The position numbers were made by a program, and so were the translations under genes. 64,000 nt of DNA from Planctomycetota bacterium. Its GTDB lineage: Bacteria; Planctomycetota; PLA2; JAEUHO01. The notes under the pieces are model-generated. The model was not told the DNA's origin and did no database searches. It saw only the letters and a list, made by a program, of their open reading frames with translations. Numbering within the stretch: the first letter of the stretch is position 1; every line of letters begins with the position of its first letter. Of the stretch, positions 47,219 through 61,627 are shown piece after piece. The stretch spans positions 1,792,001-1,856,000 of the forward strand of contig CBDCTJ010000007.1 in assembly GCA_965222115.1 (NCBI GenBank), read 5' to 3'.

Positions 47219-47419
47219 GGGGGCGAGCCTACTCGTTTGGGATACACAACACAATTCTCGTACGCATTGGTGCCGCTCGATTCGATTTTCTTTTCGGAGG
47301 TTTGGGCGTCAGAACGGCGATTCGATGACCGTATTGATTTTCGTCAAATACAATGAACTGGCTGTAACGGCCCATGGAGAGTACGAGGCGCGGCTTTGAC
47401 GCATGAAACACCAGTAGGA

Positions 47420-48340
47420 ATGAGGGTGGGGCTCGCACTACTCGTTGTGCTCGCCGGAGCTTTGTGTGTCTTTCTGTATGTGAGTCTGGTGGATTCTGGG
47501 GAGCAGTCTGGTACGAGCGCAGAAGTTCCCGAGGACGTGTCCTTACGTACGTGGCGAAACGTGTCTCCAAGCCAAGCAGAGGCAGCGTCGCGACTCGGCA
47601 TTCCCGCGGCATTTGAGAATTCATTAGGGATGCGATTCGTCTTGATTCCGCCCGGAACGTTTGACATGGGTTCGCCCGAGAACGAAGTGGGGCGCGACGA
47701 TGACGAATCGCTGATTAGCGATGTGGTCATAAAGCACCCTTTCTATCTTCAGATTACAGAAGTAACGAACGCTCAGTGGCGCGCTTTCGACGCCCATCAC
47801 GTTGGCACGTTTTCCGGTCCGAACCAGCCCGTGGACTCCGTGTCCTATCGAAATGTTGTGGGAACTGGTAGTGATCGTAAGCGCGGATTTCTACGGTGGC
47901 TGAATGACCGGCTCATGTCTCCCGAAGAGCCCGTAGGTATCGTGTACACGCTACCAACCGAAGTGCGTTGGGAGTACGCGTGCCGGGCGGGAACGACAAC
48001 GCCGTTTCATTTCGGCGAAACCATCTCTACCGAACAAGTGAACTTCGCCGGGGACGCGATCTTTGGCACTGTCGCAGCGCATGGATACCGTGAACGTACA
48101 TTAGACGTGGGAAGCTTCTTGCCCAACGCGTGGGGTCTCTATGACATGCACGGCAATGTTTATGAATGGTGTCAACTGTCATTGAGCTACGACTCGCAAT
48201 CCGTCCCAGGGTATGCCGTTATGCGCGGTGGATCATGGTGTAGCTACCTCCAGCACGTGCGAACGGCCAATCGTCGCAAGTTCCTCTCGCACGTTCGCAC
48301 GGACTGTTGCGGCTTTCGTGTGTGTGCTGAGATTCGATAG
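47420..48340 (+). CDS. SUMF1/formylglycine-generating enzyme-like domain protein, membrane anchored
   Basis: IPPGTFDMGS, TEVTNAQW, LPTEVRWEYACRAG, PNAWGLYDMHGNVYEWC, RGGSW, GFRV. Confidence 0.92.
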   Translation: MRVGLALLVVLAGALCVFLYVSLVDSGEQSGTSAEVPEDVSLRTWRNVSPSQAEAASRLGIPAAFENSLGMRFVLIPPGTFDMGSPENEVGRDDDESLISDVVIKHPFYLQITEVTNAQWRAFDAHHVGTFSGPNQPVDSVSYRNVVGTGSDRKRGFLRWLNDRLMSPEEPVGIVYTLPTEVRWEYACRAGTTTPFHFGETISTEQVNFAGDAIFGTVAAHGYRERTLDVGSFLPNAWGLYDMHGNVYEWCQLSLSYDSQSVPGYAVMRGGSWCSYLQHVRTANRRKFLSHVRTDCCGFRVCAEIR

Positions 48341-48367: not shown

Positions 48368-49414
48368 CTACCCCTCGAGTTTCTCCACGCGCGCTTTCAA
48401 GCGCCGTATGTCCTTTAGTAAGGCCGGCAGCTTTCGAACGGCTGCGAATTGACGTCCCATTTCCCGCAACTCGGCCGCAGGAGCACCGGCATACTGTTTG
48501 CCACCCGGCAGATCGTCGATGATGCCCGCTTGGGCGGCGACTTGGGCGCGGTCACCAACCGAAATGTGACCCGCCATGCCGACTTGACCACCCATGATGA
48601 CATTGTTGCCAACTTCGGCGCTTCCTGCGAGGCCAACCTGGCCGCAAAGCAACGTATTGTTGCCGACACGTGAGCCGTGACCGATTTGTACAAGGTTGTC
48701 GATGCGTGAACCGTTGCCAACGACCGTTGTGCCGACAGCCGCGCGATCAATACAGGCGCCAGCCTGAACGTCGGTGTCGTCGCCGATGGTGACAGTGCCC
48801 ACCTGAGGAATGCGCTTCCACGTTCCGTCTCCAACCGGAGCGAAACCAAACCCGTCACCGCCAATGACGACGCCACTTTGAATGATGGCGCGCGCGCCGA
48901 CGGTGCACGCTTCGCGAATCGTCGCGTGGCTATGAACGATCGTGTCGTCACCAATTGCCACGCGCTCGTAGATCACAGCATGGGGGTGGAGCTGAACGCG
49001 TTCGCCCAACGTGACATGCTCGCCAAGTACCACATAGGCGCCGATGGTGACGCTGTCGGGGACTTCGCAGCTCTTAGGAACGATGGCCGTGGCGTGAATG
49101 CCAGGTGTTGCCGGTGATGTTGGATGAAAGAGTTCCAGTGCGTGTGCGAACGCAAGGTATGGATTCTCGATCGTGAGCGCGACCATACCGTCCGGAAGCT
49201 CGGCTTCGGCGTCGGGTGCGATCAATACCGCGCCTGCCTGAGAATCTTTGAGTTTGTTTGCATACACCGGATTGTTGAGAAACGTGACCTCGGTCTTCGT
49301 GGCTCGCTCAATGCTGCTGACATCCGTAATGTGTAGATCGCTCGACGTGGCGAGTTTGGCGCCGAGTTGCTCGGCAAGCTCAGCGATGGGGATCGTGCGG
49401 GGTATGGCCGACAT
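48368..49414 (-). CDS. lpxD: UDP-3-O-(3-hydroxyacyl)glucosamine N-acyltransferase
   Basis: NPYLAFA, hexapeptide repeats, GGDGFGF, IPQVG, IDRA, IDNLVQIGH. Confidence 0.96.
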   Translation of the reverse strand: MSAIPRTIPIAELAEQLGAKLATSSDLHITDVSSIERATKTEVTFLNNPVYANKLKDSQAGAVLIAPDAEAELPDGMVALTIENPYLAFAHALELFHPTSPATPGIHATAIVPKSCEVPDSVTIGAYVVLGEHVTLGERVQLHPHAVIYERVAIGDDTIVHSHATIREACTVGARAIIQSGVVIGGDGFGFAPVGDGTWKRIPQVGTVTIGDDTDVQAGACIDRAAVGTTVVGNGSRIDNLVQIGHGSRVGNNTLLCGQVGLAGSAEVGNNVIMGGQVGMAGHISVGDRAQVAAQAGIIDDLPGGKQYAGAPAAELREMGRQFAAVRKLPALLKDIRRLKARVEKLEG

Positions 49415-49776
49415 GATGGCTCCGTATCTGCTAGCCCGGATGTTGCACGAAGCGCGCGTCTGGGGCAATGCAAGGAGTTGTGGTTTGGCGACTTGTGATC
49501 GAACTCCATGCGAACGAAGAATGACAAGGTGTTCTCGGTGAGGATTCGGGTTCAAGCTCGAAGCGGTGGTTCCGAGGCGATGCCAAAAGCATCGCTGAGC
49601 GGTTCTCCGCAATGAGATTGGGGACGAAGACCAGCGAGAACCGCGCGATTTACCTTGGTTCGTGCAACATCCGGGCTAAGCTCAGACACGCGGGTGTCGC
49701 GGGAAACCATACGCGGGAAATGCGTCACTGAGGTGTGTTCCTCTCCCACACCGTCCGGGGTGATAGGCTGCGCACA

Positions 49777-50436
49777 ATGGTCGATCCAGCCGCCCCACAG
49801 AGCCCGCCCGCTGAGCCGCGCGACAGGCACGATTTGATTCGCCTGGCGGTGGGTTTTTACGGACTCGTGCTGCTCTTTGCCGTGGGATACGCGCTCTTCA
49901 GCAAGCACCCCATGAGCGTACTGCTGGGCGAGAACGCTCCCACGGTGCTCCACATCCTTGCCGCCGTTGGCCTCGGACTCGTGATTGTTGGGCTCACGCG
50001 CGTGGCCATGCGCATGTGGTCGAGTGTGGACGAGGCGTCGCGCATCTTGGCGAGCATCATCGGCCCGCTCACTTGGAAGCAGGCCATTATCCTCGCGGCG
50101 GTTTCTGCGATCGGCGAGGAAGTGCTGTTTCGCGGTGCCCTTTTCGCTACCCTCGGTTTCATCGGGAGCAGTCTGCTTTTCGGTCTGGTTCATGTCGTGC
50201 CGCGGCGAGCCCTATGGATGTATCCCGTCTTTGCGGCTGGCGCAGGCTTTGTGTTGGGTTTGTTGCGCGACGGTACCGGCAGCATCATTCCGCCCATCAT
50301 CACGCACTTTGTGGTTAATGCGATCAACCTTCATTTCTTGGGGTCCTTGGTCGCAAAGGACGGCACAGCAAACGAACCGGAAACACCCGAGCCCGCGAAC
50401 GATTCAAGCGACGGTGATTCGAAGGATCCTGCGTGA
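49777..50436 (+). CDS. CPBP family intramembrane glutamic endopeptidase
   Basis: EEVLFRG, FGLVH, PIITHFVVN; several TMs. Confidence 0.9.
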   Translation: MVDPAAPQSPPAEPRDRHDLIRLAVGFYGLVLLFAVGYALFSKHPMSVLLGENAPTVLHILAAVGLGLVIVGLTRVAMRMWSSVDEASRILASIIGPLTWKQAIILAAVSAIGEEVLFRGALFATLGFIGSSLLFGLVHVVPRRALWMYPVFAAGAGFVLGLLRDGTGSIIPPIITHFVVNAINLHFLGSLVAKDGTANEPETPEPANDSSDGDSKDPA

Positions 50437-51839
50437 ACGAGCCCACGAGCGAACGTCGCTCACCCGCGTTGCCCAAGCCCTCACTTTGGGATCACGTGCG
50501 CGTGTTTGGCCTGTTGATTCGATCCCTCGTTGAGGGTGTGCCGTATTTGCTCGTGTTACCGATCTGTGTACCGCTGCGGCTATGGTTGCGCAGCCGCACG
50601 CGAAAGAAACTGCGTAGCCGCGACCGCACCACATCGCTCGACGAACCGCCAACGATCGACGAGCTAGCGACGAGCCCAACCGTGTTTGTCGTTGTCGGTG
50701 AGGCGTCAGGTGACACACTGGCTGCACCACTCGTTGCAGACATCTTGCGTCGGGTGCCCCTTGCACGCATCCGTGGCTATGGCGGGCCCAAGTGTGAAGC
50801 CGCCGGGATGTGCGTGGACCGCGACATTACGAGTCATGCGGTGATGGGCACCTGGTCGGTGATTGCAACGCTCGGGGTGTGGTGGCGCATCTGTGTGGAA
50901 TTCTTGGCGATCCTTCGAACGGACACGCCCGATCTCCTGCTCACTGTTGATTTTCCCGGGCTCAATGGACGCTTTGCGCAGTGGGGTAAGAAGGCGGGCG
51001 TTCGAACCGTTCACATGGTGGCCCCGCAAGTGTGGGCCCACGCCCCATGGCGTGCGGGTCGTTGGCGGAGAGCCGTCGATCTCATGTTGAGCGTGTTTCC
51101 ATTCGAGCCCACACTTCATCGCGCGGGTGGTATGCGCAGTGTGTATGTGGGACATCCATTGTTCGAGGCGCCGCTCAGCTCGCCACGTACCGGCGAAACA
51201 CGCCCCACGCCAGGCGCCGCCGAGATCGAGTTGTGGCCTGGGAGTCGAAATCGCGAATTGCAACACCACGCGCGTATGACCTTTGATGCAGCCAAGGCAC
51301 TTCGCGAGCAATACGATGGGCTGCAGTTTTCGATTCGGCTTGCAAAGTCCGATCACAAGCGCTACTACGAATCGCTTGATGGCTTTGCCGCGGCGGCAGA
51401 CGGCGACGCATGGATTCGATTTGCCAAGGGCGACGAACCGCACACGCGACCACTGCTCGGTGCACTCGCGTGTAGTGGAACTGCGACAGCAGAACTCGCT
51501 GTAGCACTTGTGCCCACGGTCGTGTTCTATCGAATCAGTTGGTTGCAGCAGCTCGCGGCGTGGGGCTATTTGAATGCGCCGTGGTTCAGCCTGCCGAACG
51601 TCATCGCGGGCCGTGAACTTCTTCCCGAGCATCTCGTGGTGCGCTCATCGGGCGGAGCCGAGCTCGCCGCTTCGTTCATCGACAAGATTGCACCCGAAGA
51701 TCGTTGGCGCGAGGTCCGCCGCGAACTCACATCCATCCGCAACGAACTCGAAACCCATAACGTCACCCCCCGCGCTGCCGGATGGGTCTGCGCGGAACTA
51801 AACTCCACAATTGGTGCCGGGAGCGAATTGGTAAGTTAA
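50433..51839 (+). CDS. lpxB: Lipid-A-disaccharide synthase with N-terminal hydrophobic extension
   Basis: GEASGD, AVMG, VDFPGLN, PQVWA, FPFE, VGHPL, PGSR, SGTATAE, LPN. Confidence 0.9.
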   Translation: MNEPTSERRSPALPKPSLWDHVRVFGLLIRSLVEGVPYLLVLPICVPLRLWLRSRTRKKLRSRDRTTSLDEPPTIDELATSPTVFVVVGEASGDTLAAPLVADILRRVPLARIRGYGGPKCEAAGMCVDRDITSHAVMGTWSVIATLGVWWRICVEFLAILRTDTPDLLLTVDFPGLNGRFAQWGKKAGVRTVHMVAPQVWAHAPWRAGRWRRAVDLMLSVFPFEPTLHRAGGMRSVYVGHPLFEAPLSSPRTGETRPTPGAAEIELWPGSRNRELQHHARMTFDAAKALREQYDGLQFSIRLAKSDHKRYYESLDGFAAAADGDAWIRFAKGDEPHTRPLLGALACSGTATAELAVALVPTVVFYRISWLQQLAAWGYLNAPWFSLPNVIAGRELLPEHLVVRSSGGAELAASFIDKIAPEDRWREVRRELTSIRNELETHNVTPRAAGWVCAELNSTIGAGSELVS

Positions 51840-52439: not shown

Positions 52440-54854
52440 TCACTTTCGAGACGTGGCGCGCTTGCGGGGTGGTCCTTCGTAGATCACCGTTCCGCCTTCG
52501 TCCGCCGCGCCGGGTCCGAGCTCAATCTGCCAATCGGCAGCCGCGAGTAGCAGAGGATGATGATCGGCGGCGATCACCGTGCTGGTGGTGTCGGCCAGGT
52601 CGCGTAAGACCGTCACCAAATGCGCAACGTCTTTGGGGTGGAGTCCTGTACACGGTTCTTCCAGGAGGTAGAGGGTGTCACCGGGCGAGCCCTTCGCAAG
52701 GGAGGCCGCGAGCTTTAGGCGCAGCATCTCGCCGCCGGACAAGTGTGACGTGGGTTCCCCAAGCGCTGTGTACCCCAAGCCCACATTGTTGGCCGCATGC
52801 AGCGGGCGATGCACATTGGGAACATGCTTAAAGGTCTCCATGGCTTCTGCGATCGACATGTTCAACACATCAACTATTGTGTAGCCCTTGACTCGCACAC
52901 GCGACACTTCATCACGGAAGCGCGTGCCCTCGCACTCTTCGCAGGCGACGCGGAAGGATGGCAGCTGGCGCAACGAGACTTGCTGAACGCCGGATCCATT
53001 GCAAGCCGAGCATCGACCCTGTTTGGTATGGGGCGAAAAATAACTGGCCGTCCAACCCCGCGCGCGCGCTTCGAGCGTAGAGGCAAAAAACGTTCGCAGA
53101 TGGCCAAATACACCCAAGACACTTGCGGGTGTGGAGCGCGCGTGGCGCGTTGCCAATCCTTCGGCGACCGCAAGTCGCGTGGGAACTCGATCTAATTTGA
53201 GTGTGGGCGTACTCGTCGCGTCGCGCGTATCGAGAATGGTCCGTGTATGCCGACCAATCACGTGCCGAAGCAATGCCGACTTGCCTGCTCCACTGGGTCC
53301 TGTGATGACCGTCATGGCTCCCAAGGGGATCTTGCAATCGACGCGCTTGAGATTCTTCGCCGCTGCCCCGCGAACATGGATCCATTCCGCATGATCGGTA
53401 GCGCTTCGCGTCGATGTGACGAGTCCCATTTCCCGTCGTTGTTCCAAGTAGGCCTTGGATGTCCCATGAAACACAAGCTCGCCGCCAAGACGTCCTGCGC
53501 CCGGCCCCAACTCCACGACCGTGTCTGCGTGCGCCAGCATGCCAGGATCATGGTCGACGCAGATCACGGTGTTGCCTTCCTGAACCAACTCACGAAGTTT
53601 CTTCCAGAGCGGAAGTCGGTCGCGTTCGCTGAGCCCGGCCGCCGGCTCGTCGAGGAGAAAGAGCAGTCCGCTCATGCGCGACGAGCAGAGATTGATAAGT
53701 TCCGCGCGCCGACGTTCTCCACGCGAAAGCATGCTTGCGGCGCGTCCCATCGAGAGGCCGCCCATGCCGAGATCGCACAGAAAGCTGAGTCGCTCCGTGA
53801 GGTCGTGGCGGATGGGTGCAACCAGTGGTGCAGCGGCATCTTCAAGTTCACGAATCCACGTACGGAGTTGCGCTGCGGGCAGCGCGTCCAACTCCGGTAA
53901 GGTCCGACCGTTGAGTCGCGCAGCGGCGCCCACTGCGGATCGACGATGGCCATCACACGCCGGGCACGTCAACGCATCGTTGTCGTTCTCACCCTCAACA
54001 ACACCCAGACCTTCACAGGTTTCACATGCGCCTTGGGGACGATTGAAGTGAAACGTAGCCGGCGAAAGGGACGGGCGAAAGGCGTCACACGACGGGCAAA
54101 ACGGGCGCGTACTGTAGCGCGCTTCCGTTTCTTCACCCTCTGGCGACCTCGTACGACATACCACACGCTCGTTACCCAGCGAGAGTGCCTGATCGATCGA
54201 GGCGCGAAAACGATCTTCGGCACCCTCCGACACAATGAGTCGATCCACGATGGCTTCGACGGACTCGCTTGGTTGAATGGGTGCATCGATGTCGTCTACG
54301 CGAACTTCATGCTTGCCACCCAGTCGCACGCGCACAAGTCCCTGCTCGCGAACCTGCTCAAGCGCATCCGGTCCCTTGCCCATGGCGATCATGAGCCAAA
54401 TCTTGGTCCGTTCCGGGAGCGCCAGCAGGGCTTCGCCTATTTGACGGCGACCGGTTGCGGGTGTGGCCGTGCCACATACATGGCAATACGACTTTGCAGC
54501 TCGCGCGAACAAGTACTGAAGCCCACGGGCGATATCGGTGAGTGTTCCGAGCGTGTCGCGTGAACGACCGTGAGCATGTTTGGGCGCATAGAGAACGGCA
54601 GGGGGAAGTCCGTCGATGGCATCCACATCCGGCCTCGGCAACAAATCCACACCGCGCGTTGCATGACGTTGGGTGCCCGCAAAGCGTCGTTGCGACTCCA
54701 CCGCCAAGGTGTCGATCACAAGCGACGATTTTCCCGAACCCGACACGCCGCAGACAGCAATCCATGTGCCGAGAGGCAACTCGAGATCGAGGTCGCGAAG
54801 ATTGTGTGTCCGTGCGCCACGGATTCGAATCTGGGGGGATGGCGAAGAGGTCAA
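52440..54854 (-). CDS. uvrA: UvrA-like excinuclease ABC ATPase (short, divergent paralog)
   Basis: IRGARTHNL, GVSGSGKSSL, zinc fingers, GPGAG, GPSGAGKS, LSGGE; first signature LSRGE and second Walker B LEEP are deviant. Confidence 0.8.
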   Translation of the reverse strand: MTSSPSPQIRIRGARTHNLRDLDLELPLGTWIAVCGVSGSGKSSLVIDTLAVESQRRFAGTQRHATRGVDLLPRPDVDAIDGLPPAVLYAPKHAHGRSRDTLGTLTDIARGLQYLFARAAKSYCHVCGTATPATGRRQIGEALLALPERTKIWLMIAMGKGPDALEQVREQGLVRVRLGGKHEVRVDDIDAPIQPSESVEAIVDRLIVSEGAEDRFRASIDQALSLGNERVVCRTRSPEGEETEARYSTRPFCPSCDAFRPSLSPATFHFNRPQGACETCEGLGVVEGENDNDALTCPACDGHRRSAVGAAARLNGRTLPELDALPAAQLRTWIRELEDAAAPLVAPIRHDLTERLSFLCDLGMGGLSMGRAASMLSRGERRRAELINLCSSRMSGLLFLLDEPAAGLSERDRLPLWKKLRELVQEGNTVICVDHDPGMLAHADTVVELGPGAGRLGGELVFHGTSKAYLEQRREMGLVTSTRSATDHAEWIHVRGAAAKNLKRVDCKIPLGAMTVITGPSGAGKSALLRHVIGRHTRTILDTRDATSTPTLKLDRVPTRLAVAEGLATRHARSTPASVLGVFGHLRTFFASTLEARARGWTASYFSPHTKQGRCSACNGSGVQQVSLRQLPSFRVACEECEGTRFRDEVSRVRVKGYTIVDVLNMSIAEAMETFKHVPNVHRPLHAANNVGLGYTALGEPTSHLSGGEMLRLKLAASLAKGSPGDTLYLLEEPCTGLHPKDVAHLVTVLRDLADTTSTVIAADHHPLLLAAADWQIELGPGAADEGGTVIYEGPPRKRATSRK

Positions 54855-54879: not shown

Positions 54880-57726
54880 GTGAATGCCGCCGCTCCCCCG
54901 CCCAATATGGAAATCGCCTGGCGGCGCGAGTGGACTATCGCCGTGACTGACGCGGCAGATCCCATATACCAGTTTCGCCGCGGACACATGGGGCTGGTGT
55001 GCCTGCTTAGTTTCGTATTCCTGATGGGCGTCGGCAATCTCGCGATACTTGCGTGGCTCCATCGACCAACGCCTAGGTCGCTACCGGAGATCGGCGCTCG
55101 TACCGAAGAGGCGTCGCCCTTCTTCTTGGCCGTCATTGATGGATTGCGCGAAGGTTCAGCGTGGGCAATCGACGACTCACCCATGCCGTGGCTTCGGGAG
55201 TTCGCCAAGCAGGGTGTTTGGGGGGTGTCGATTACCGGTGAACCTACGCTCACGGCGCCGTGCGTGCGCTGCATCATTTCCGGTCGCCGTCCCGACTTGA
55301 TTACTGGCTTTCAGAACTTCGATGCACCCAAGGCGCCCGGTTCGATCATTGAGTATCTCGTGAAGCGTGGCGCACGCGCGGCCCATGGCGGCGATGCGGC
55401 CGTGTACCAGATGTGTCGCGACTATTACCAACCCGAGTCCGCTTATCAAGTACCCGATCGCGGGCCCGTGGATCAAGGGGAGACCGATCGCATTGCGGTC
55501 CCGTTCGTGTTGGCGCGTATTGAAGACGGACACGATCTCATCACGCTGCATCTCACGTCGCCCGACCACGCGGGTCACAAATATGGCGCAACGGGTCGGC
55601 ACTACTGGGAAGCCTGTCGATTTGTTGATGACAAGCTCAAGGCTTCCGTCAGTGCATTTCGCGTCAAGTATCCCAACGGGACGGTGTGTATCGCTTCTGA
55701 TCACGGCATGTCCGACATGGGAACGCACGGCGGTGGAGAAGAAGTCGCACGGCGTGCGCCGTTCTGCTTGGTTGGTCCTGGGTTCCTGCCACGCGGTCCC
55801 GTGGAAACCAATCAGAGTTCGATTGCGCCCACGATTTGTGCCGCACTGGGCTTGCCACAACCTCCCCTCGCCGATGCTCCACCGGAAGTGGATTGGCTAC
55901 AGGAAAGCCCCACGGAACAGCGTGCGATCTTGCGCGACTACTTGGAAGCGCGTGCGCAGGTGGCGCGTGATGTGAGCGGGCTGAACGTGGACTTTGTAGA
56001 ACGGCGGCGCGCGCTTCGAACGGTCCAAGATAGCGACATGACCGATCGTCTGCGTATCGAGTCGCTCATCGCCGAAGTCGAGAACATGGTGAATCCGAGG
56101 CATACGTTGCCTTCGGTGATGGCGCTACTTGTTTCGCTGCTCGGTCTCATATGGCTTGTATATGTTCATCACGCGAGTCGCCTGACGCGAGGAACGTTGT
56201 GGATGTGTGCCATCGCAGCGCTGGCCGCGGCGCATTTGCTGGGTGCGATTCCCGGAGTCTCCCCCGCGTCGGTGTGGCTGGCGAGTGGGGTAAGCCTATT
56301 GGTAATTGGGGGTGCGGCGTGCCTGGCACCGAGGCGTATGCAATTTTCGGTGATCGCCGTGGCGTGTGCCGCTGTGCTGTTCGCGATTCCGGTGCTTGCA
56401 GGCACCGGACACACGTTTCAATCCACATGGGAGCGATTCACGGTTCGAACGCCGGCCACGGAACACGTCTTGTTCGCCACGCTGGTGGGTTCGGCGCTGG
56501 TCTTCTTCTTGGCTCACGGCATATGGAGAAGTCACAGACGGAACGGCGCAACTGCGCGAGGCCGTGCCAAACCGGTTCTGTTGGCTATGCTCGGTGGTGC
56601 GTCTGTGGGTGGGCTCCTCTCGCTGCGGCCATTCGTTCAGCCGATTCTGACTACGAAGGAGTTCATCGCCATTGCCGCGAGCATCATGCTTTGGCTGTGG
56701 TTGCGACGCAGTGGCGCAGGCAAATGGCGTCAAGCGTTCGTACTCGGCGGATCATTGCTTGTGATTTGGGTGCCGCGTATTGCTGAGCGCAGCCTAGATG
56801 ATCACTGGATTGGCGCTGTACCTGCGAAAGACACCCTGTGGTTGCTTGCGGGATTGATTGTTACATGCGTCGTTGTGGCCCTCGCCTGGACTCGTAAGAC
56901 AGGTTGGCGTCTTACAGGATTTGCGGTGAGTTGTCTCACGCTGGTCTTCCTGTTTCGGTTCACCAACGATGTGTGTCGTCAGGCGTGGTTTGGCGAAACC
57001 GGTGCTATTACCGCTGCGCTCTTGACCACCGCTTTGCCCTTGATACTTTTGCTCATTTCTTTGCGCGTAGCGTCGCCAAAGGTCCAGTGGTGGTTGCGTC
57101 TAGTTGCTGCCCTGGCGCTCGCCCGCCGACTGTCGGTCAAGGACGCGGAGTTCCTAGTGTATGCGTGTGCGGGCTGCATTGCGCATGGCGCCTCCGCGCT
57201 ACGTTTGCCGCACGCTCGTTGGCGCATCGCGTGGCTGGCGATCGTCGTGATTGTGATTCGCACGGCGCTCTTTCATGCGATGGGATTCATTGAGAGCTTC
57301 AGCACCCTGGACGTGGGGCAAGCATTCGAGGGACTGGGCACCGCGCGCAATACCGTGCCCAATCGTGTGGGGGGTATGACGTGGCAGATTGTTGTTGCCA
57401 CTGCACAAATGGTGATTCGCATGGCGTTGCCGTGGGTGTTGTTGTTGGGTGTGCTCGTACGCATGGCATCGAACTCAGGTAAGTACGGACTCAACACGGT
57501 GCGTACATCGGTTGCGGATATTGCAGTGGGACTTGCCGGTCGCGGCGCATTCATTGTGTGGGCGATTTGGGTGTGGTGGCGCAATGCGTGGTGGACCGGG
57601 TATGCGCAAACCGTCTACGCCTATGCCGCCGCCGACATCCTACTCATCGTAGGTGTCGCGTTCCTCATGGGCGTGTTTGCGCGCGATGACTATTCGTCAA
57701 GCAAGGCTGGGCTTTCGCCTGCCTGA
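54880..57726 (+). CDS. Alkaline-phosphatase-superfamily multi-TM protein, GPI ethanolamine-phosphate transferase (PIG-G/PIG-O)-like
   Basis: AVIDGLR, PTLTAP, DHAGHKYG, SDHGMSDMGTHGG, then more than 10 TM segments with FHAMGFIESFSTLDVGQAFEGL; start may be 54943 or 54988. Confidence 0.8.
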   Translation: MNAAAPPPNMEIAWRREWTIAVTDAADPIYQFRRGHMGLVCLLSFVFLMGVGNLAILAWLHRPTPRSLPEIGARTEEASPFFLAVIDGLREGSAWAIDDSPMPWLREFAKQGVWGVSITGEPTLTAPCVRCIISGRRPDLITGFQNFDAPKAPGSIIEYLVKRGARAAHGGDAAVYQMCRDYYQPESAYQVPDRGPVDQGETDRIAVPFVLARIEDGHDLITLHLTSPDHAGHKYGATGRHYWEACRFVDDKLKASVSAFRVKYPNGTVCIASDHGMSDMGTHGGGEEVARRAPFCLVGPGFLPRGPVETNQSSIAPTICAALGLPQPPLADAPPEVDWLQESPTEQRAILRDYLEARAQVARDVSGLNVDFVERRRALRTVQDSDMTDRLRIESLIAEVENMVNPRHTLPSVMALLVSLLGLIWLVYVHHASRLTRGTLWMCAIAALAAAHLLGAIPGVSPASVWLASGVSLLVIGGAACLAPRRMQFSVIAVACAAVLFAIPVLAGTGHTFQSTWERFTVRTPATEHVLFATLVGSALVFFLAHGIWRSHRRNGATARGRAKPVLLAMLGGASVGGLLSLRPFVQPILTTKEFIAIAASIMLWLWLRRSGAGKWRQAFVLGGSLLVIWVPRIAERSLDDHWIGAVPAKDTLWLLAGLIVTCVVVALAWTRKTGWRLTGFAVSCLTLVFLFRFTNDVCRQAWFGETGAITAALLTTALPLILLLISLRVASPKVQWWLRLVAALALARRLSVKDAEFLVYACAGCIAHGASALRLPHARWRIAWLAIVVIVIRTALFHAMGFIESFSTLDVGQAFEGLGTARNTVPNRVGGMTWQIVVATAQMVIRMALPWVLLLGVLVRMASNSGKYGLNTVRTSVADIAVGLAGRGAFIVWAIWVWWRNAWWTGYAQTVYAYAAADILLIVGVAFLMGVFARDDYSSSKAGLSPA

Positions 57727-60428
57727 CTCGACGTGGCTTTCCGCCACGCCTCATCCACTTTGCCGGTTTCGATGTCGAAGTCGTCGCCAAAGAGATCGGG
57801 AATGTCGGCCATGCGGGATGTGGCTTCGTCTTCGTTGGGTGCGCCGGATACATAACGAAGTGTGTGGCGCCCGGTGCGTATGGCCAATCCATCCACGAGC
57901 AATCGACGATCGCGGCTGCCCGACTCGCTGCGCGACACAATCATGGGGCCCACGCGTGTGGGTTGAATCGTTGCAACCGTTTCACCGGCTCCGCCAATCG
58001 ATAACTTGCCGCGTTTCGTCGCGTGCAACGTTGCCTTTCTGCGGCCAATCGAATCGAGGGGGAGTCGTCCCACCGCACGATCCACACCGTCCACGGTGTA
58101 AAGCAACGTGCCCTTGACGGGTGGGGGACGAAACTGCATCACCGTGACCAGTCCAAGCAGCGCTGCCAAGGCACCCAGCCCCAAGAACAGCCAACCGGTG
58201 GACTTCACCTTGGCCGGCGTCGAAACCGTGGCGGTGGCGCTTTCGTCCACGTCCTGGCCCCGCCATGCAAACGAAAAGGACGCAGTTTCGTTGCGTGCCG
58301 AAAACGAATCCGGCTTTGCGCCCTTCCATGCACCGCTGGGTTCTAGCTGCCACTTGCCCGGCGAAAGCAGGCGCAACGTCCAGTCCTGTAGGGTTCGGGG
58401 CGTGGCGGTCACCGTGGGCGAAATCTCCATCAGGCGCAGTAGCGCATCGCCGGTGATGCCGTCGGGGTCCAGCGACAGCCGGATCGCATGAATGCCGGTG
58501 AGTTTGCCCTCGGCCACATCGTACGCCGCATGATTTGGCTCCACGACGATGCGCGGAGAACGCAACCCAATTGAAAACGTCACGGTTCCGTCAATCGAAA
58601 TGCCCGACGGATACATGGCTGTAACCGTTACCTCCGCGGATCCGCTCAAATCGGGCAGCGCCTTCGCATTTTTGAGCCTTGCAGACAATGCATAGCGGAT
58701 GTCGCGCGAGAGCTTAGTTCCTCGGTCCCAGGCAATCGGTCTAGCGCGCTTCGCTTCGCTCATTGCTGTAAACGCGACGTGCGGCTTCCATGCTTCCGGT
58801 GACACGGTTGCTCTCAACTGGATGAAATCGGGTGTCATGCTATTCAGATCGCGCACCACGAGGTTGATCTCCTCGGGCGCATCGCCCTGGGGCAACAATT
58901 GAGGCGTGGCTCCACCGATCAAGACAAGTCGAGCGCGTGGATCGGCGGGTGCGCACGCATACGAGATTGATAGTGTGCCTTTGTATTCGCTCTTCGTGAC
59001 AAGCGAAATCACGCCTCTGCTCGCTCCCATGTAGCCGCGTTTCGGGTGATACGAAACGGTTAGAGGTAGGCCGCGTACGCCAGGGCGGAGCAGCTTCGGT
59101 GACCCTAACTTTACTTTCATACCGGCCTTTAGTTGATTGCCCACGTGCCACGTTGGGGCTCGTTCACCCGTGTCCGACGGAATGTCGGTGTATGCAATGA
59201 CATAGTCGGCCGTCGCAGGTGACGCGGACGTAACCCCCGTAGCTTGGAACGCCGTTGGGGCCGAACCATCCGCACGTTGGAGTACTGCCTCGCGCTTGGG
59301 CTCCGGCCATGACGCTTCAACCGAATCTGGCAACTGCCCGAAAAACAACACGCGTTCCGTTGTTTGCTCTTCGTCGCGAGTGACGCTCACCGAAAGTTCC
59401 GTGGCCGCCATGTCGTCGCGTGTGATCTGTGCATTGATCATTCCCGTGTCGGGGTCAATCGTTGTTCTGAGCTTGTCGCCGTCGCGATTCGTGGCTATCG
59501 AAATCGGAATGGGCGGTGGGCGGTCACCCCATGTAACGGACGAGGTTGCCACCGAGACGTTGGCAAGCAGTCCGCGGATGTCGCTTCTGCTGGTCCCCAT
59601 TAACGACGCAGGCGGATCACACGTTACCTGCGGCGAACCAACTTCGGTCACGATCCGTCCGGCAGGTTGCCAGCCGCGTGCTGGTGCATCCTCGTTCTCA
59701 AGCACGGCCCGCGCGTCGTCGCTCAATCCGAACGCGATGATCTTGGTCCCTTTGGGCGCATCCTCGTTCCATTTCTCGACACCCGCTTCGAGTTCCTTGC
59801 GATCGTTCTTGCTCTGCCCAGCCGTCGTAAACGGACCGACCAAGACAAGCCATTGCGCAAGTGATTTGCCGCGCCTTCGTCGGGCGACACCAAGTGCGAT
59901 ACCCACGCCGGTGGGTCGCTTGAAATCGAAGTACTGGCTTTCCTCAATGGACGCGAGCCCTTTGTCGTCGAATGCGATCTCGCGCAGTTGCGCCAAGTTG
60001 TCGGACGTGGAGGTGACGGCTACGGCCTTGGCCCGCATGCCCAGTGCGATGAGTGGGTCAACGAATGCGCGCGCACGGGCGAGGTGTTCTTTCGCATCGT
60101 CTTTGGCGGCGATACCACGATCGATCACAACAAGGATCTGCGCCTTAGGGACATGGACCTTGTTCTCGTCCTCTTTCTTCTTGTCTTCGTCGGCCCAAAT
60201 CGTGCCCAGTAGATTCGCTGCGAAAATGAGGCAGAGCATCCATCGGATCGTTACTTGGCCTGCCATGCAGGCATGGGACGGGGATGCGCGCGAGGTCATG
60301 ATGATGCCGATCTTCCCCCGAGACGATGGGAAGTCACATAACTTTGACCTGGAACCGACCCACTTACGCAGACGATTGGCGACCGCAGAGCTCGCGAAAC
60401 GTGCAGACGGCACACTTGCTAAGGTCAT
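57690..60428 (-). CDS. Large secreted protein with C-terminal TM and short cytoplasmic domain
   Basis: Signal peptide (WMLCLIFAANLLGTIWA), vWA-like QILVVIDRG start, beta-rich middle, TM WLFLGLGALAALLGLV; true start probably 60238-60298. Confidence 0.7.
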   Translation of the reverse strand: MTLASVPSARFASSAVANRLRKWVGSRSKLCDFPSSRGKIGIIMTSRASPSHACMAGQVTIRWMLCLIFAANLLGTIWADEDKKKEDENKVHVPKAQILVVIDRGIAAKDDAKEHLARARAFVDPLIALGMRAKAVAVTSTSDNLAQLREIAFDDKGLASIEESQYFDFKRPTGVGIALGVARRRRGKSLAQWLVLVGPFTTAGQSKNDRKELEAGVEKWNEDAPKGTKIIAFGLSDDARAVLENEDAPARGWQPAGRIVTEVGSPQVTCDPPASLMGTSRSDIRGLLANVSVATSSVTWGDRPPPIPISIATNRDGDKLRTTIDPDTGMINAQITRDDMAATELSVSVTRDEEQTTERVLFFGQLPDSVEASWPEPKREAVLQRADGSAPTAFQATGVTSASPATADYVIAYTDIPSDTGERAPTWHVGNQLKAGMKVKLGSPKLLRPGVRGLPLTVSYHPKRGYMGASRGVISLVTKSEYKGTLSISYACAPADPRARLVLIGGATPQLLPQGDAPEEINLVVRDLNSMTPDFIQLRATVSPEAWKPHVAFTAMSEAKRARPIAWDRGTKLSRDIRYALSARLKNAKALPDLSGSAEVTVTAMYPSGISIDGTVTFSIGLRSPRIVVEPNHAAYDVAEGKLTGIHAIRLSLDPDGITGDALLRLMEISPTVTATPRTLQDWTLRLLSPGKWQLEPSGAWKGAKPDSFSARNETASFSFAWRGQDVDESATATVSTPAKVKSTGWLFLGLGALAALLGLVTVMQFRPPPVKGTLLYTVDGVDRAVGRLPLDSIGRRKATLHATKRGKLSIGGAGETVATIQPTRVGPMIVSRSESGSRDRRLLVDGLAIRTGRHTLRYVSGAPNEDEATSRMADIPDLFGDDFDIETGKVDEAWRKATSSQAGESPALLDE

Positions 60429-61317
60429 CGGTCATCGGGAAGTCATCCGAACGCGCGACGTTGACATCGGGGTTTGCGAGCTTGGCTTTCATGGCGCGAA
60501 TGCTCGTTCGCATGAGGTCGCGCGTTTCCGCGATATCGTCCTGCGTCACCTGAAAGGGAAACACCTGACAGTCGTCGCCCAAGTAGACCAAGTGATTGGT
60601 GACGTGATTTGGGTTCGCACCGTATGCGGCTTCGACATAGAGCGTGTAGCAAACAAGTTGCGCTCGATTGCCGTCGGGTGTCACAGCGCCCGTCTTCCAA
60701 TCGTAGATGTTGACGCCATCCCCGTCGGTGCGACTCGCGAAGTCAAGCACGGCCCACACGTCTACGCCATCGAAGCGGAAATTGTCGAGCTTCTCAATGG
60801 GGAGCCACATCCGGGTGTCACTGGTGCGAATTTCATTGAATAGCGGACTGCGTAGAAACGCTTGAAGCGCGCGAATCGCCTTCGCATTGACTGCGGCCCA
60901 ATCATCTCGCGTTAGCGGTTCATCGTAGTGATGCTCGGCCAGCCCCACTTTGTGCTTGGGCCTTCGGCGGTAGTCGCCGTCGCGACTCTCGAGCCACTGA
61001 CGTCGCATCGTTTCCGTTAGGCGCTCGACTTCTTTGTTGGGATCGATATCGGCAGACTCAAAGAGCAGGCCGTCGCCGCTCCCGCCCTTCTGTACTTGCC
61101 GCAATATGCCTTCAATAGCTTCGTGAACCACGGTGCCGACCCACGTCCATCGCGTGTGAAGGTTCTTGAGCATGTATGCGCGGCGTGCTTCGGGATCGGC
61201 ATCATGACTCCAGCCGCCCCACGATCCGTAGTACGTCCACCAGTACTGCCGCGCGCAGTAGTCAAAGGTGCGTCCGCGTGAGACGGACCACGTGAAATTG
61301 TTCTTGAGCTCGGCCAC
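60364..61317 (-). CDS. PD-(D/E)XK nuclease (AddB/Cas4-like, Fe-S Cys motif)
   Basis: WSVSR..FDYCARQY, GTVVHE, LDF, IYDWKTG, QLVCY, CAVCTFRELC. Confidence 0.88.
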   Translation of the reverse strand: MAELKNNFTWSVSRGRTFDYCARQYWWTYYGSWGGWSHDADPEARRAYMLKNLHTRWTWVGTVVHEAIEGILRQVQKGGSGDGLLFESADIDPNKEVERLTETMRRQWLESRDGDYRRRPKHKVGLAEHHYDEPLTRDDWAAVNAKAIRALQAFLRSPLFNEIRTSDTRMWLPIEKLDNFRFDGVDVWAVLDFASRTDGDGVNIYDWKTGAVTPDGNRAQLVCYTLYVEAAYGANPNHVTNHLVYLGDDCQVFPFQVTQDDIAETRDLMRTSIRAMKAKLANPDVNVARSDDFPMTDDLSKCAVCTFRELCGRQSSA

Positions 61318-61627
61318 CGTGGAAAGATAGTCCGAAAGCGTGGGGACCAAGCGCATTGCCTTGACCATCCGCCGCGCCGTGTGACGGCTTGCGCCCAATC
61401 TGCCTACACCTCATGCCCACCGTAGGGGCGTTGGCGCCTGCCGCAAAGGTGGATGTCGCGTTTCACGCGTCGTCCCAATGACTCATGGTGTCCGCATCAA
61501 TTCCATCCAAGGATCCGCAAATGGTGGCGGAACCATGAACGCGGGCTAGATTGGTGCGCGACGGTCAGAGGCGCCGCAGGGTTGTGTTGAGGCTGGCGGC
61601 GTTTCACTAGATGGGAGATTATGCCGG

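Follow-up and report, generated by a model that had tools for sequence, protein, structure and literature searches.

The ethanolamine-phosphate transferases of glycosylphosphatidylinositol (GPI) synthesis are considered eukaryotic; PIG-N, PIG-O and PIG-G, which encode them, are disease genes in humans and targets for antifungals. PIG-N/Mcd4 and, by extension, PIG-O/Gpi13 and PIG-G/Gpi7 are proteins of 900–1000 amino acids (aa), in which an N-terminal transmembrane (TM) helix is followed by a PF01663-type domain and then by a polytopic membrane domain. Here we describe a gene of the same layout found in a 64,000-nucleotide stretch of DNA from a Planctomycetota bacterium (GenBank assembly GCA_965222115.1, contig CBDCTJ010000007.1, positions 1,792,001 to 1,856,000 of the forward strand), which we call the window and whose positions, counted from its first letter, are used below. 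Judged from its sequence, the encoded protein is a remote homologue of the eukaryotic PIG-N/O/G enzymes and belongs to a large, uncharacterised family of bacterial and archaeal proteins sharing its layout; a search of the open-access literature returned no paper on bacterial homologues of PIG-N/O/G or on this family. The window protein is bacterial and predicted to be periplasmic, whereas the eukaryotic enzymes face the lumen of the endoplasmic reticulum. It also differs from the EptA/LptA/MCR-1/EptC enzymes, in which five TM helices come first and the catalytic domain is of the sulfatase type (PF00884), the order in the window protein being reversed and its domain PF01663-type. With the NPP/ENPP phosphodiesterases, such as Xac NPP, it shares the PF01663 fold, the two-metal site and a Thr at the nucleophile position, but those enzymes are without a polytopic membrane domain, which in the window protein is conserved and made of 17 helices.

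The gene and the layout of its product

The open reading frame (ORF) at 54880-57726 on the plus strand was confirmed; in its longest form, from the GTG at 54880, it encodes 948 aa, the likely start being the ATG at 54907, which gives a protein of 939 aa. An identical database protein, P0002, begins at this ATG and has 939 aa, and its residue numbering is used throughout. The gene is single-copy in the 4.55-Mb, 90%-complete genome. An earlier note, made from the letters of the window, had described one N-terminal TM helix, an alkaline-phosphatase-superfamily domain and a large C-terminal multi-TM region, and this layout was borne out by translation, by hydropathy (one N-terminal hydrophobic segment, then many from about residue 400 to the C-terminus) and by an AlphaFold2 model. 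In the model, which was built with 49 homologues and is confident (pLDDT 87.6, pTM 0.89), residues 25-51 form a helix and 72-334 an alpha/beta domain; 335-395 are taken up by two long linker helices, and 17 long helices follow between 400 and 920. In Pfam, the protein matched PF01663 (Phosphodiest) with E 5e-14, and Metalloenzyme and Sulfatase more weakly (PF00884, E 0.26). The features of the gene are as follows:

54907..57726, plus strand: coding sequence of the putative PIG-like membrane phosphotransferase, 939 aa, stop codon at 57724-57726
54979..55059, plus strand: N-terminal TM helix, P0002 residues 25-51, from hydropathy and the model; predicted to run from cytoplasm to periplasm, the orientation being taken from loop charges
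55099..55908, plus strand: alkaline-phosphatase-superfamily catalytic domain, P0002 residues about 65-334, predicted periplasmic
55909..56091, plus strand: two long linker helices joining the catalytic and membrane domains, P0002 residues 335-395, from the model
56104..57666, plus strand: C-terminal polytopic membrane domain of 17 long helices, P0002 residues 400-920, without a solved-fold match
57271..57333, plus strand: conserved motif FHAMGFIESFSTLDVGQAFEG, shared between the outer end of helix 15 and the 34-residue loop after it, predicted on the side of the catalytic domain

When the 18 helices were alternated from a cytoplasmic N-terminus, the inner loops contained 13 Lys and Arg in 69 residues and the outer loops 7 in 82. 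This charge distribution argues for an N-in topology, in which the catalytic domain and the motif loop (792-825) would lie on the periplasmic side.

The catalytic half is closer to PIG-N than to nucleotide pyrophosphatases

The catalytic half is an alkaline-phosphatase-superfamily domain whose active site is intact. Conservation was read from two profiles, A1, of 49 rows, and A2, of 61 diverse family members:

55138..55140, plus strand: codon of Asp78 (IDGLR), putative metal ligand, Asp in 49/49 rows of A1 and 61/61 of A2
55246..55254, plus strand: Thr114-Leu-Thr116 (PTLTAP), with Thr116 the presumed nucleophile, aligned to the Thr of SLTFPNH in Xac NPP (2gsn, 7mw8)
55564..55578, plus strand: DHAGH, with the putative metal ligands Asp220 and His224, both in 61/61 rows
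55699..55737, plus strand: DHGMSDMGTHGGG, with Asp265, His266 and His274, in spacing identical to DHGMSDWGSHGDG of fungal PIG-N

Across A2, D78, D220, H224, H266 and H274 are invariant (61/61) and D265 is present in 60/61, while position 116 is T or S in all 61 rows; the Thr of SLTFPNH with which it aligns is, we assume, the nucleophile of Xac NPP. The spacing of DHGMSD-G-HG-G is the same in the window protein and in PIG-N. All the motifs quoted in the earlier note are present in the translation, with one correction: three residues, not two, separate SDHGM from the following G (SDHGMSDMGTHGG).

The direct sequence comparisons with GPI transferases were made with fungal PIG-N. Two fungal PIG-N proteins with the Pfam PigN domain were retrieved by the A2 profile, scoring 173 and 168 bits (E 2.7e-45). 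In hhalign, A2 matched the PIG-N protein P0201 with a probability of 99.6 and E 1e-24, profile positions 22-323 being aligned with PIG-N 19-381, a match that spans the N-terminal TM helix and the entire catalytic domain. Even pairwise BLASTP detected the relationship, at 48.5 bits (E 2e-9), with an identity of 22% in the catalytic half. In the reciprocal direction, a hidden Markov model (HMM) of the PIG-N catalytic domain, built from 119 fungal sequences, found a single match among the 7,568 ORFs of the genome (six frames, at least 150 aa), and this was the gene in question (E 1.3e-8); the other PF01663 genes of the genome, the NPP-like gene C7:996453-997553 and the sulfatases were unmatched. 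By comparison, solved NPPs scored at best 22.6 bits with the protein itself and 44 bits with the A1 profile, and PIG-N reached only 18.7 bits with ENPP1. In the whole-protein Atlas features, GPI transferases 3, 1 and 2 were among the nearest named clusters (0.92-0.93). The earlier note had left room for a catalytic half that grouped with generic nucleotide pyrophosphatases; the profile scores (PIG-N 173 bits, NPP 22-44) and the reciprocal genome search, taken together, speak against such a grouping. On these alignments, the homology of the N-terminal TM helix and catalytic half to PIG-N, much closer than to generic NPPs, can be considered solid.

A prokaryotic family with the same layout

A word-indexed search retrieved about 50 relatives of 900-970 aa with 30-77% identity. 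The named ones among them are all Planctomycetota proteins from metagenome-assembled genomes (MAGs), annotated as 'alkaline phosphatase family protein', and one relative, P0037, is labelled 'ethanolaminephosphotransferase' by one source. This close subfamily was found in 5/5 genomes of its own taxonomic family and in 0/196 other Planctomycetota (201 sampled, E ≤ 1e-20). The C-terminal motif is conserved, with H790, A791, G793 and G809 in 49/49 rows and E796, S799, T800 and D802 in at least 47/49.

HMMER searches over 1.84 billion cluster representatives gave 1,249 matches at E ≤ 0.001, of which 381 reached E ≤ 1e-10 and 35 reached E ≤ 1e-30. Among the matches listed, in 67 of the 68 with at least 700 aa the catalytic domain is followed by a series of hydrophobic peaks, and the N-terminal peak is present in most as well. 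In Atlas features, the nearest clusters, with a score of 0.97 and proteins of about 800-840 aa, are from Myxococcota, Verrucomicrobiota and Thermoplasmatota (archaea), and the wider family also takes in Chloroflexota. The window protein falls in a distinct subfamily (100% support in the tree described below) of an uncharacterised prokaryotic group of 'alkaline phosphatase family protein' (750-960 aa; Planctomycetota, Myxococcota, Verrucomicrobiota, Thermoplasmatota and others), which shares with it the architecture, the catalytic residues and a C-terminal F-x-x-x-G-x-x-S-F-S-x-x-D-V motif. The topology had been taken as a hallmark of the eukaryotic enzymes. This is not so: at least 67 other database clusters, bacterial and archaeal, share the layout, and a catalytic-first, membrane-after order is therefore not peculiar to eukaryotes.

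A 716-aa ORF at G000:C3:163445-165592 (minus strand; L003/L005) also has PF01663 matches but no hydrophobic segment. Its relationship to the family is distant (38 bits to A2), and we count it as a separate, soluble member of the alkaline phosphatase superfamily.

Proposed function

By analogy with described enzymes, we propose, with a probability of about 0.6, that the gene encodes a periplasm-facing, membrane-embedded, two-metal transferase of phospho-headgroups onto an acceptor of the envelope, and the headgroup moved would probably be phosphoethanolamine. The mechanism is modelled on PIG-N/O/G, EptA/MCR-1 and LtaS. A single-copy inner-membrane enzyme would hold a zinc-type catalytic domain facing the periplasm on its 17-helix membrane domain, and the latter would present a glycerophospholipid of the outer leaflet, most likely phosphatidylethanolamine (PE). 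The two-metal site (D78, D220, H224, D265, H266, H274) would activate Thr116 for attack on the phosphodiester; diacylglycerol would leave and a covalent phospho-headgroup enzyme would form on Thr116. An envelope glycan, glycolipid or glycoprotein, placed in the vicinity of the conserved periplasmic loop motif, which would sit near the active site, would then accept the headgroup on one of its hydroxyls. The genome encodes a phosphatidylserine decarboxylase (Psd), so that PE would be available.

The membrane half and the position of the eukaryotic enzymes

Several results weigh against this proposal. In the membrane half, the window protein differs from PIG-N in having no match to the Pfam families PigN (PF04987) or PIGO_PIGG (PF19316) at E ≤ 1; these families matched nothing in the whole genome at E ≤ 10 and none of 58 wider family members. 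The best E-value obtained by aligning with hhalign the membrane halves of the A1 and A2 families to those of 119 fungal PIG-N (Neff 2.7) was 0.068, versus 0.079-0.15 for reversed controls, and the HMM of the PIG-N membrane half gave at most 9.5 bits on 199 prokaryotic proteins (2.8 on reversed sequences). In fold searches, the whole model matched only alkaline-phosphatase-superfamily domains, the membrane half being without a resembling solved structure; the copy of the PDB that was searched held no PIG-N-family chain by sequence, and there was no solved PIG structure to compare with.

Within the membrane half, a likeness to PIG-N could be measured for one element, the last segment with the GFIESFSTLDV motif of the earlier note, which is weakly co-linear with the last segment of PIG-N. 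HMMER and hhalign agreed on the best pairing, in which the family motif is aligned with the last segment of PIG-N, at equal distance from the C-terminus, so that F-H-A-M-G-F-x-E-S-F-S-T-L-D-V and an A-L-P-W helix in the family are paired with F-F-S-T-G-N-V-A-S-V-S-A-F-S-L and M-I-P-F in PIG-N. The HMM of the C-terminal segment of the family found the two PIG-N proteins co-linear at 2.4 and 7.0 bits, scores matched by 19/300 and 1/300 block-shuffled copies, respectively. In a 4 x 4 matrix of segments (PIG-N HMMs against the family, 61 sequences each), the last-versus-last comparison was the only one of the 16 cells tested to beat both controls, with +1.78 bits and with p-values, relative to the shuffled and to the reversed sequences, of 9.6e-7 and 4.2e-5, which are overstated, the 61 sequences being kin and all the PIG-N rows fungal; the signal in each sequence is tiny, with a maximum of 8.2 bits. 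The same sequences gave no signal with the other three PIG-N segments, nor did the same HMM with the other three segments of the family. Independently, when Atlas features were taken from the membrane half by itself, clusters of membrane-only fragments of GPI transferase 2 (PIG-G, with PIGO_PIGG on 76% of the members), 3-like (PIG-O) and 1 (PIG-N) scored 0.79, 0.78 and 0.76, at ranks 2, 3 and 8, scores below 0.9 that serve as a lead only. We regard the likeness of the last segment to PIG-N as suggestive, and for the membrane half as a whole we lean towards a partial homology to PIG proteins.

A further point on the same side comes from a maximum-likelihood tree of the catalytic domain (77 rows, quick search, SH-aLRT support only). 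Its base was not resolved, and PIG-N (99%) was placed with prokaryotic forms of 500-620 aa and with long-branch outgroups, not with the clade of the window protein (100%), which falls inside the long-form family. Single-sequence phmmer searches from fungal PIG-N similarly ranked short prokaryotic forms at the top, for example P0190 with 66.8 bits. Because of the unresolved tree and the higher phmmer scores of the short forms, we call the gene a cousin of PIG-N and do not claim it as a sister or an orthologue. Four of these short forms, P0190, P0129, P0142 and P0132 (550-610 aa), gave 51-67 bits to fungal PIG-N in phmmer, above the long planctomycete forms, and their grouping with PIG-N in the tree is a loose one; the nearest prokaryotic kin of the eukaryotic enzymes may perhaps be sought with more success among such proteins. 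Lastly, the gene context indicates no acceptor, as the gene has no same-strand neighbours and is flanked by genes on the opposite strand.

Hydrolysis and other donors

Members of the superfamily can be hydrolases, and the sequence data do not tell transfer from hydrolysis, nor PE from other donors. The product could accordingly be a membrane-anchored hydrolase, such as a phosphodiesterase, a pyrophosphatase or a phospholipase-C-like enzyme. The hydrolases and transferases of the alkaline phosphatase superfamily share the same catalytic machinery, and the best matches of the protein among solved structures, by fold and by sequence, are NPP-type phosphodiesterases; however, a conserved 17-helix domain with an invariant, predicted-periplasmic motif would be needless for a soluble substrate, and the closest sequence relatives of known function, the PIG-N proteins, are transferases, which makes hydrolysis a rather unlikely function.

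We consider equally doubtful that a transferase of this kind uses a donor other than PE, for instance phosphatidylglycerol with transfer of glycerol phosphate, in the manner of LtaS/OpgB, or that it transfers phosphocholine. The periplasmic domains of LtaS and YejM/PbgA are among the structural matches, and donor specificity is not revealed by the conserved residues. On the other hand, LtaS and OpgB have a domain order opposite to that of the window protein, and PE is the donor of PIG-N, its closest relative of known function.

The neighbourhood and the lipid A question

The genes surrounding the transferase gene in the window are the following:

47396-48340, plus strand: gene with an FGE-sulfatase domain
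48368-49612, minus strand: lpxD
49735-50436, plus strand: Rce1-like CAAX protease gene
50433-51839, plus strand: lpxB
52440-54854, minus strand: UvrA-like ABC ATPase, 804 aa, with ABC_tran, UvrA_inter and zinc-finger-like matches
57690-60428, minus strand: 912-aa ORF without a Pfam match at E ≤ 0.001
60364-61398, minus strand: PD-(D/E)XK nuclease gene, after the 912-aa ORF

The UvrA-like gene is divergent from the transferase gene, from which it is separated, when the longest ORFs are taken, by no more than about 50 bp; its product is presumably shorter than canonical UvrA and may be a UvrA paralogue. On the other side, the 912-aa ORF is convergent, its stop end overlapping the 3' end of the transferase gene by 37 bp, and it may act in repair as a pair with the nuclease, AddAB-like or of another kind. 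A same-strand overlap of 4 bp between the Rce1-like and lpxB ORFs points to co-transcription of the two. Among 21 related MAG loci, many of which are too short to show every flanking gene, the UvrA-like gene was present in 14/21, the 912-aa ORF and the nuclease each in 11/21, lpxB in 8/21, the Rce1-like gene in 6/21 and lpxD in 5/21. In some relatives the transferase gene is followed by a same-strand ORF of 190 aa (L006:8768-9334 and L008:6485-7081, both plus strand), by eye a LOG/TIGR00725-type Rossmann protein; this ORF was rejected as a membrane partner, and it had no tblastn match in the genome at E ≤ 1e-3.

The proximity of lpxB and lpxD had suggested a link with an envelope glycolipid, and the enzyme could be imagined as a phosphoethanolamine transferase for lipid A or the lipopolysaccharide core, filling the place of EptA in a clade without EptA-type enzymes. 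The genome encodes Psd and has no match to EptA_B_N (PF08019), which is likewise missing from the protein; lpxB, lpxD and the Rce1-like gene do lie 3-6 kb upstream, and lpxB is upstream in the 8 related loci counted above. They form no operon with the transferase gene, however, from which they are separated by the opposite-strand UvrA-like gene, and the UvrA-like gene, the 912-aa ORF and the nuclease belong to the block as well, whose synteny holds across one taxonomic family. Since the close family is confined to that taxonomic family, synteny is expected from shared ancestry, and since conservation extends to the DNA-repair genes of the block, it indicates no specific tie to lipid A. The wider family, moreover, includes archaea and Chloroflexota, which to our knowledge make no lipid A. 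A role in lipid A or core modification is, on balance, improbable.

Search for components of a GPI pathway

A search of the genome for other PIG homologues, suggested in the earlier note, found neither the partner PIG-F (PF06699) nor the GPI mannosyltransferase families PIG-M (PF05007) and PIG-V (PF04188) at E ≤ 1, a result that does not prove absence, as the genome is 90% complete and, in the control genomes, PF04188 matched none and PF06699 and PF05007 matched only below the cut-off. The one hit of this search was marginal, a 732-aa ORF at G000:C1:159501-160388 (plus strand; L027) whose match to Glyco_transf_22 lies at the curated cut-off (23.4 bits, E 3.5e-5), on another contig than the gene; 0/14 control genomes matched. 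Glyco_transf_22 is the family of the PIG-B/PIG-Z/ALG9/ALG12 mannosyltransferases. A true role in a GPI pathway is unlikely, and that the gene is a genuine PIG-O/PIG-G orthologue working in a bacterial GPI-like anchor pathway is hardly credible: the full-length architecture and size, the PIG-O, PIG-G and PIG-N clusters listed by Atlas for the whole protein and for the membrane half, and the label of P0037 would fit such an orthologue, but the genome gave no match to PIG-F, PIG-M or PIG-V, Pfam PIGO_PIGG and PigN are not matched, and the tree does not make the clade a sister of PIG-N.

Significance

The family described here is already visible in the databases under a generic name. According to a published study (PMC12338589), the synthesis of GPI anchors looks Asgard-derived. 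That picture becomes more complicated, or more refined, with a family that is widespread in bacteria and truly related in its catalytic half, and the bacterial relative would give a concrete test of the origin of this portion of the GPI machinery.

One could go further and suppose that the whole protein, membrane domain included, shares an ancestor with PIG-N/O/G, that the family is the prokaryotic stock of the eukaryotic enzymes and that the planctomycete enzyme decorates with phosphoethanolamine an undescribed envelope glycolipid or glycoprotein anchor; we give low odds to this combination. With its identical layout and confident in silico fold, the bacterial relative would make the mechanism of PIG-N/O/G, in the catalytic and in the membrane part, more accessible to experiment. 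For the biology of the planctomycetes, it points to a decoration of the envelope with phospho-headgroups.

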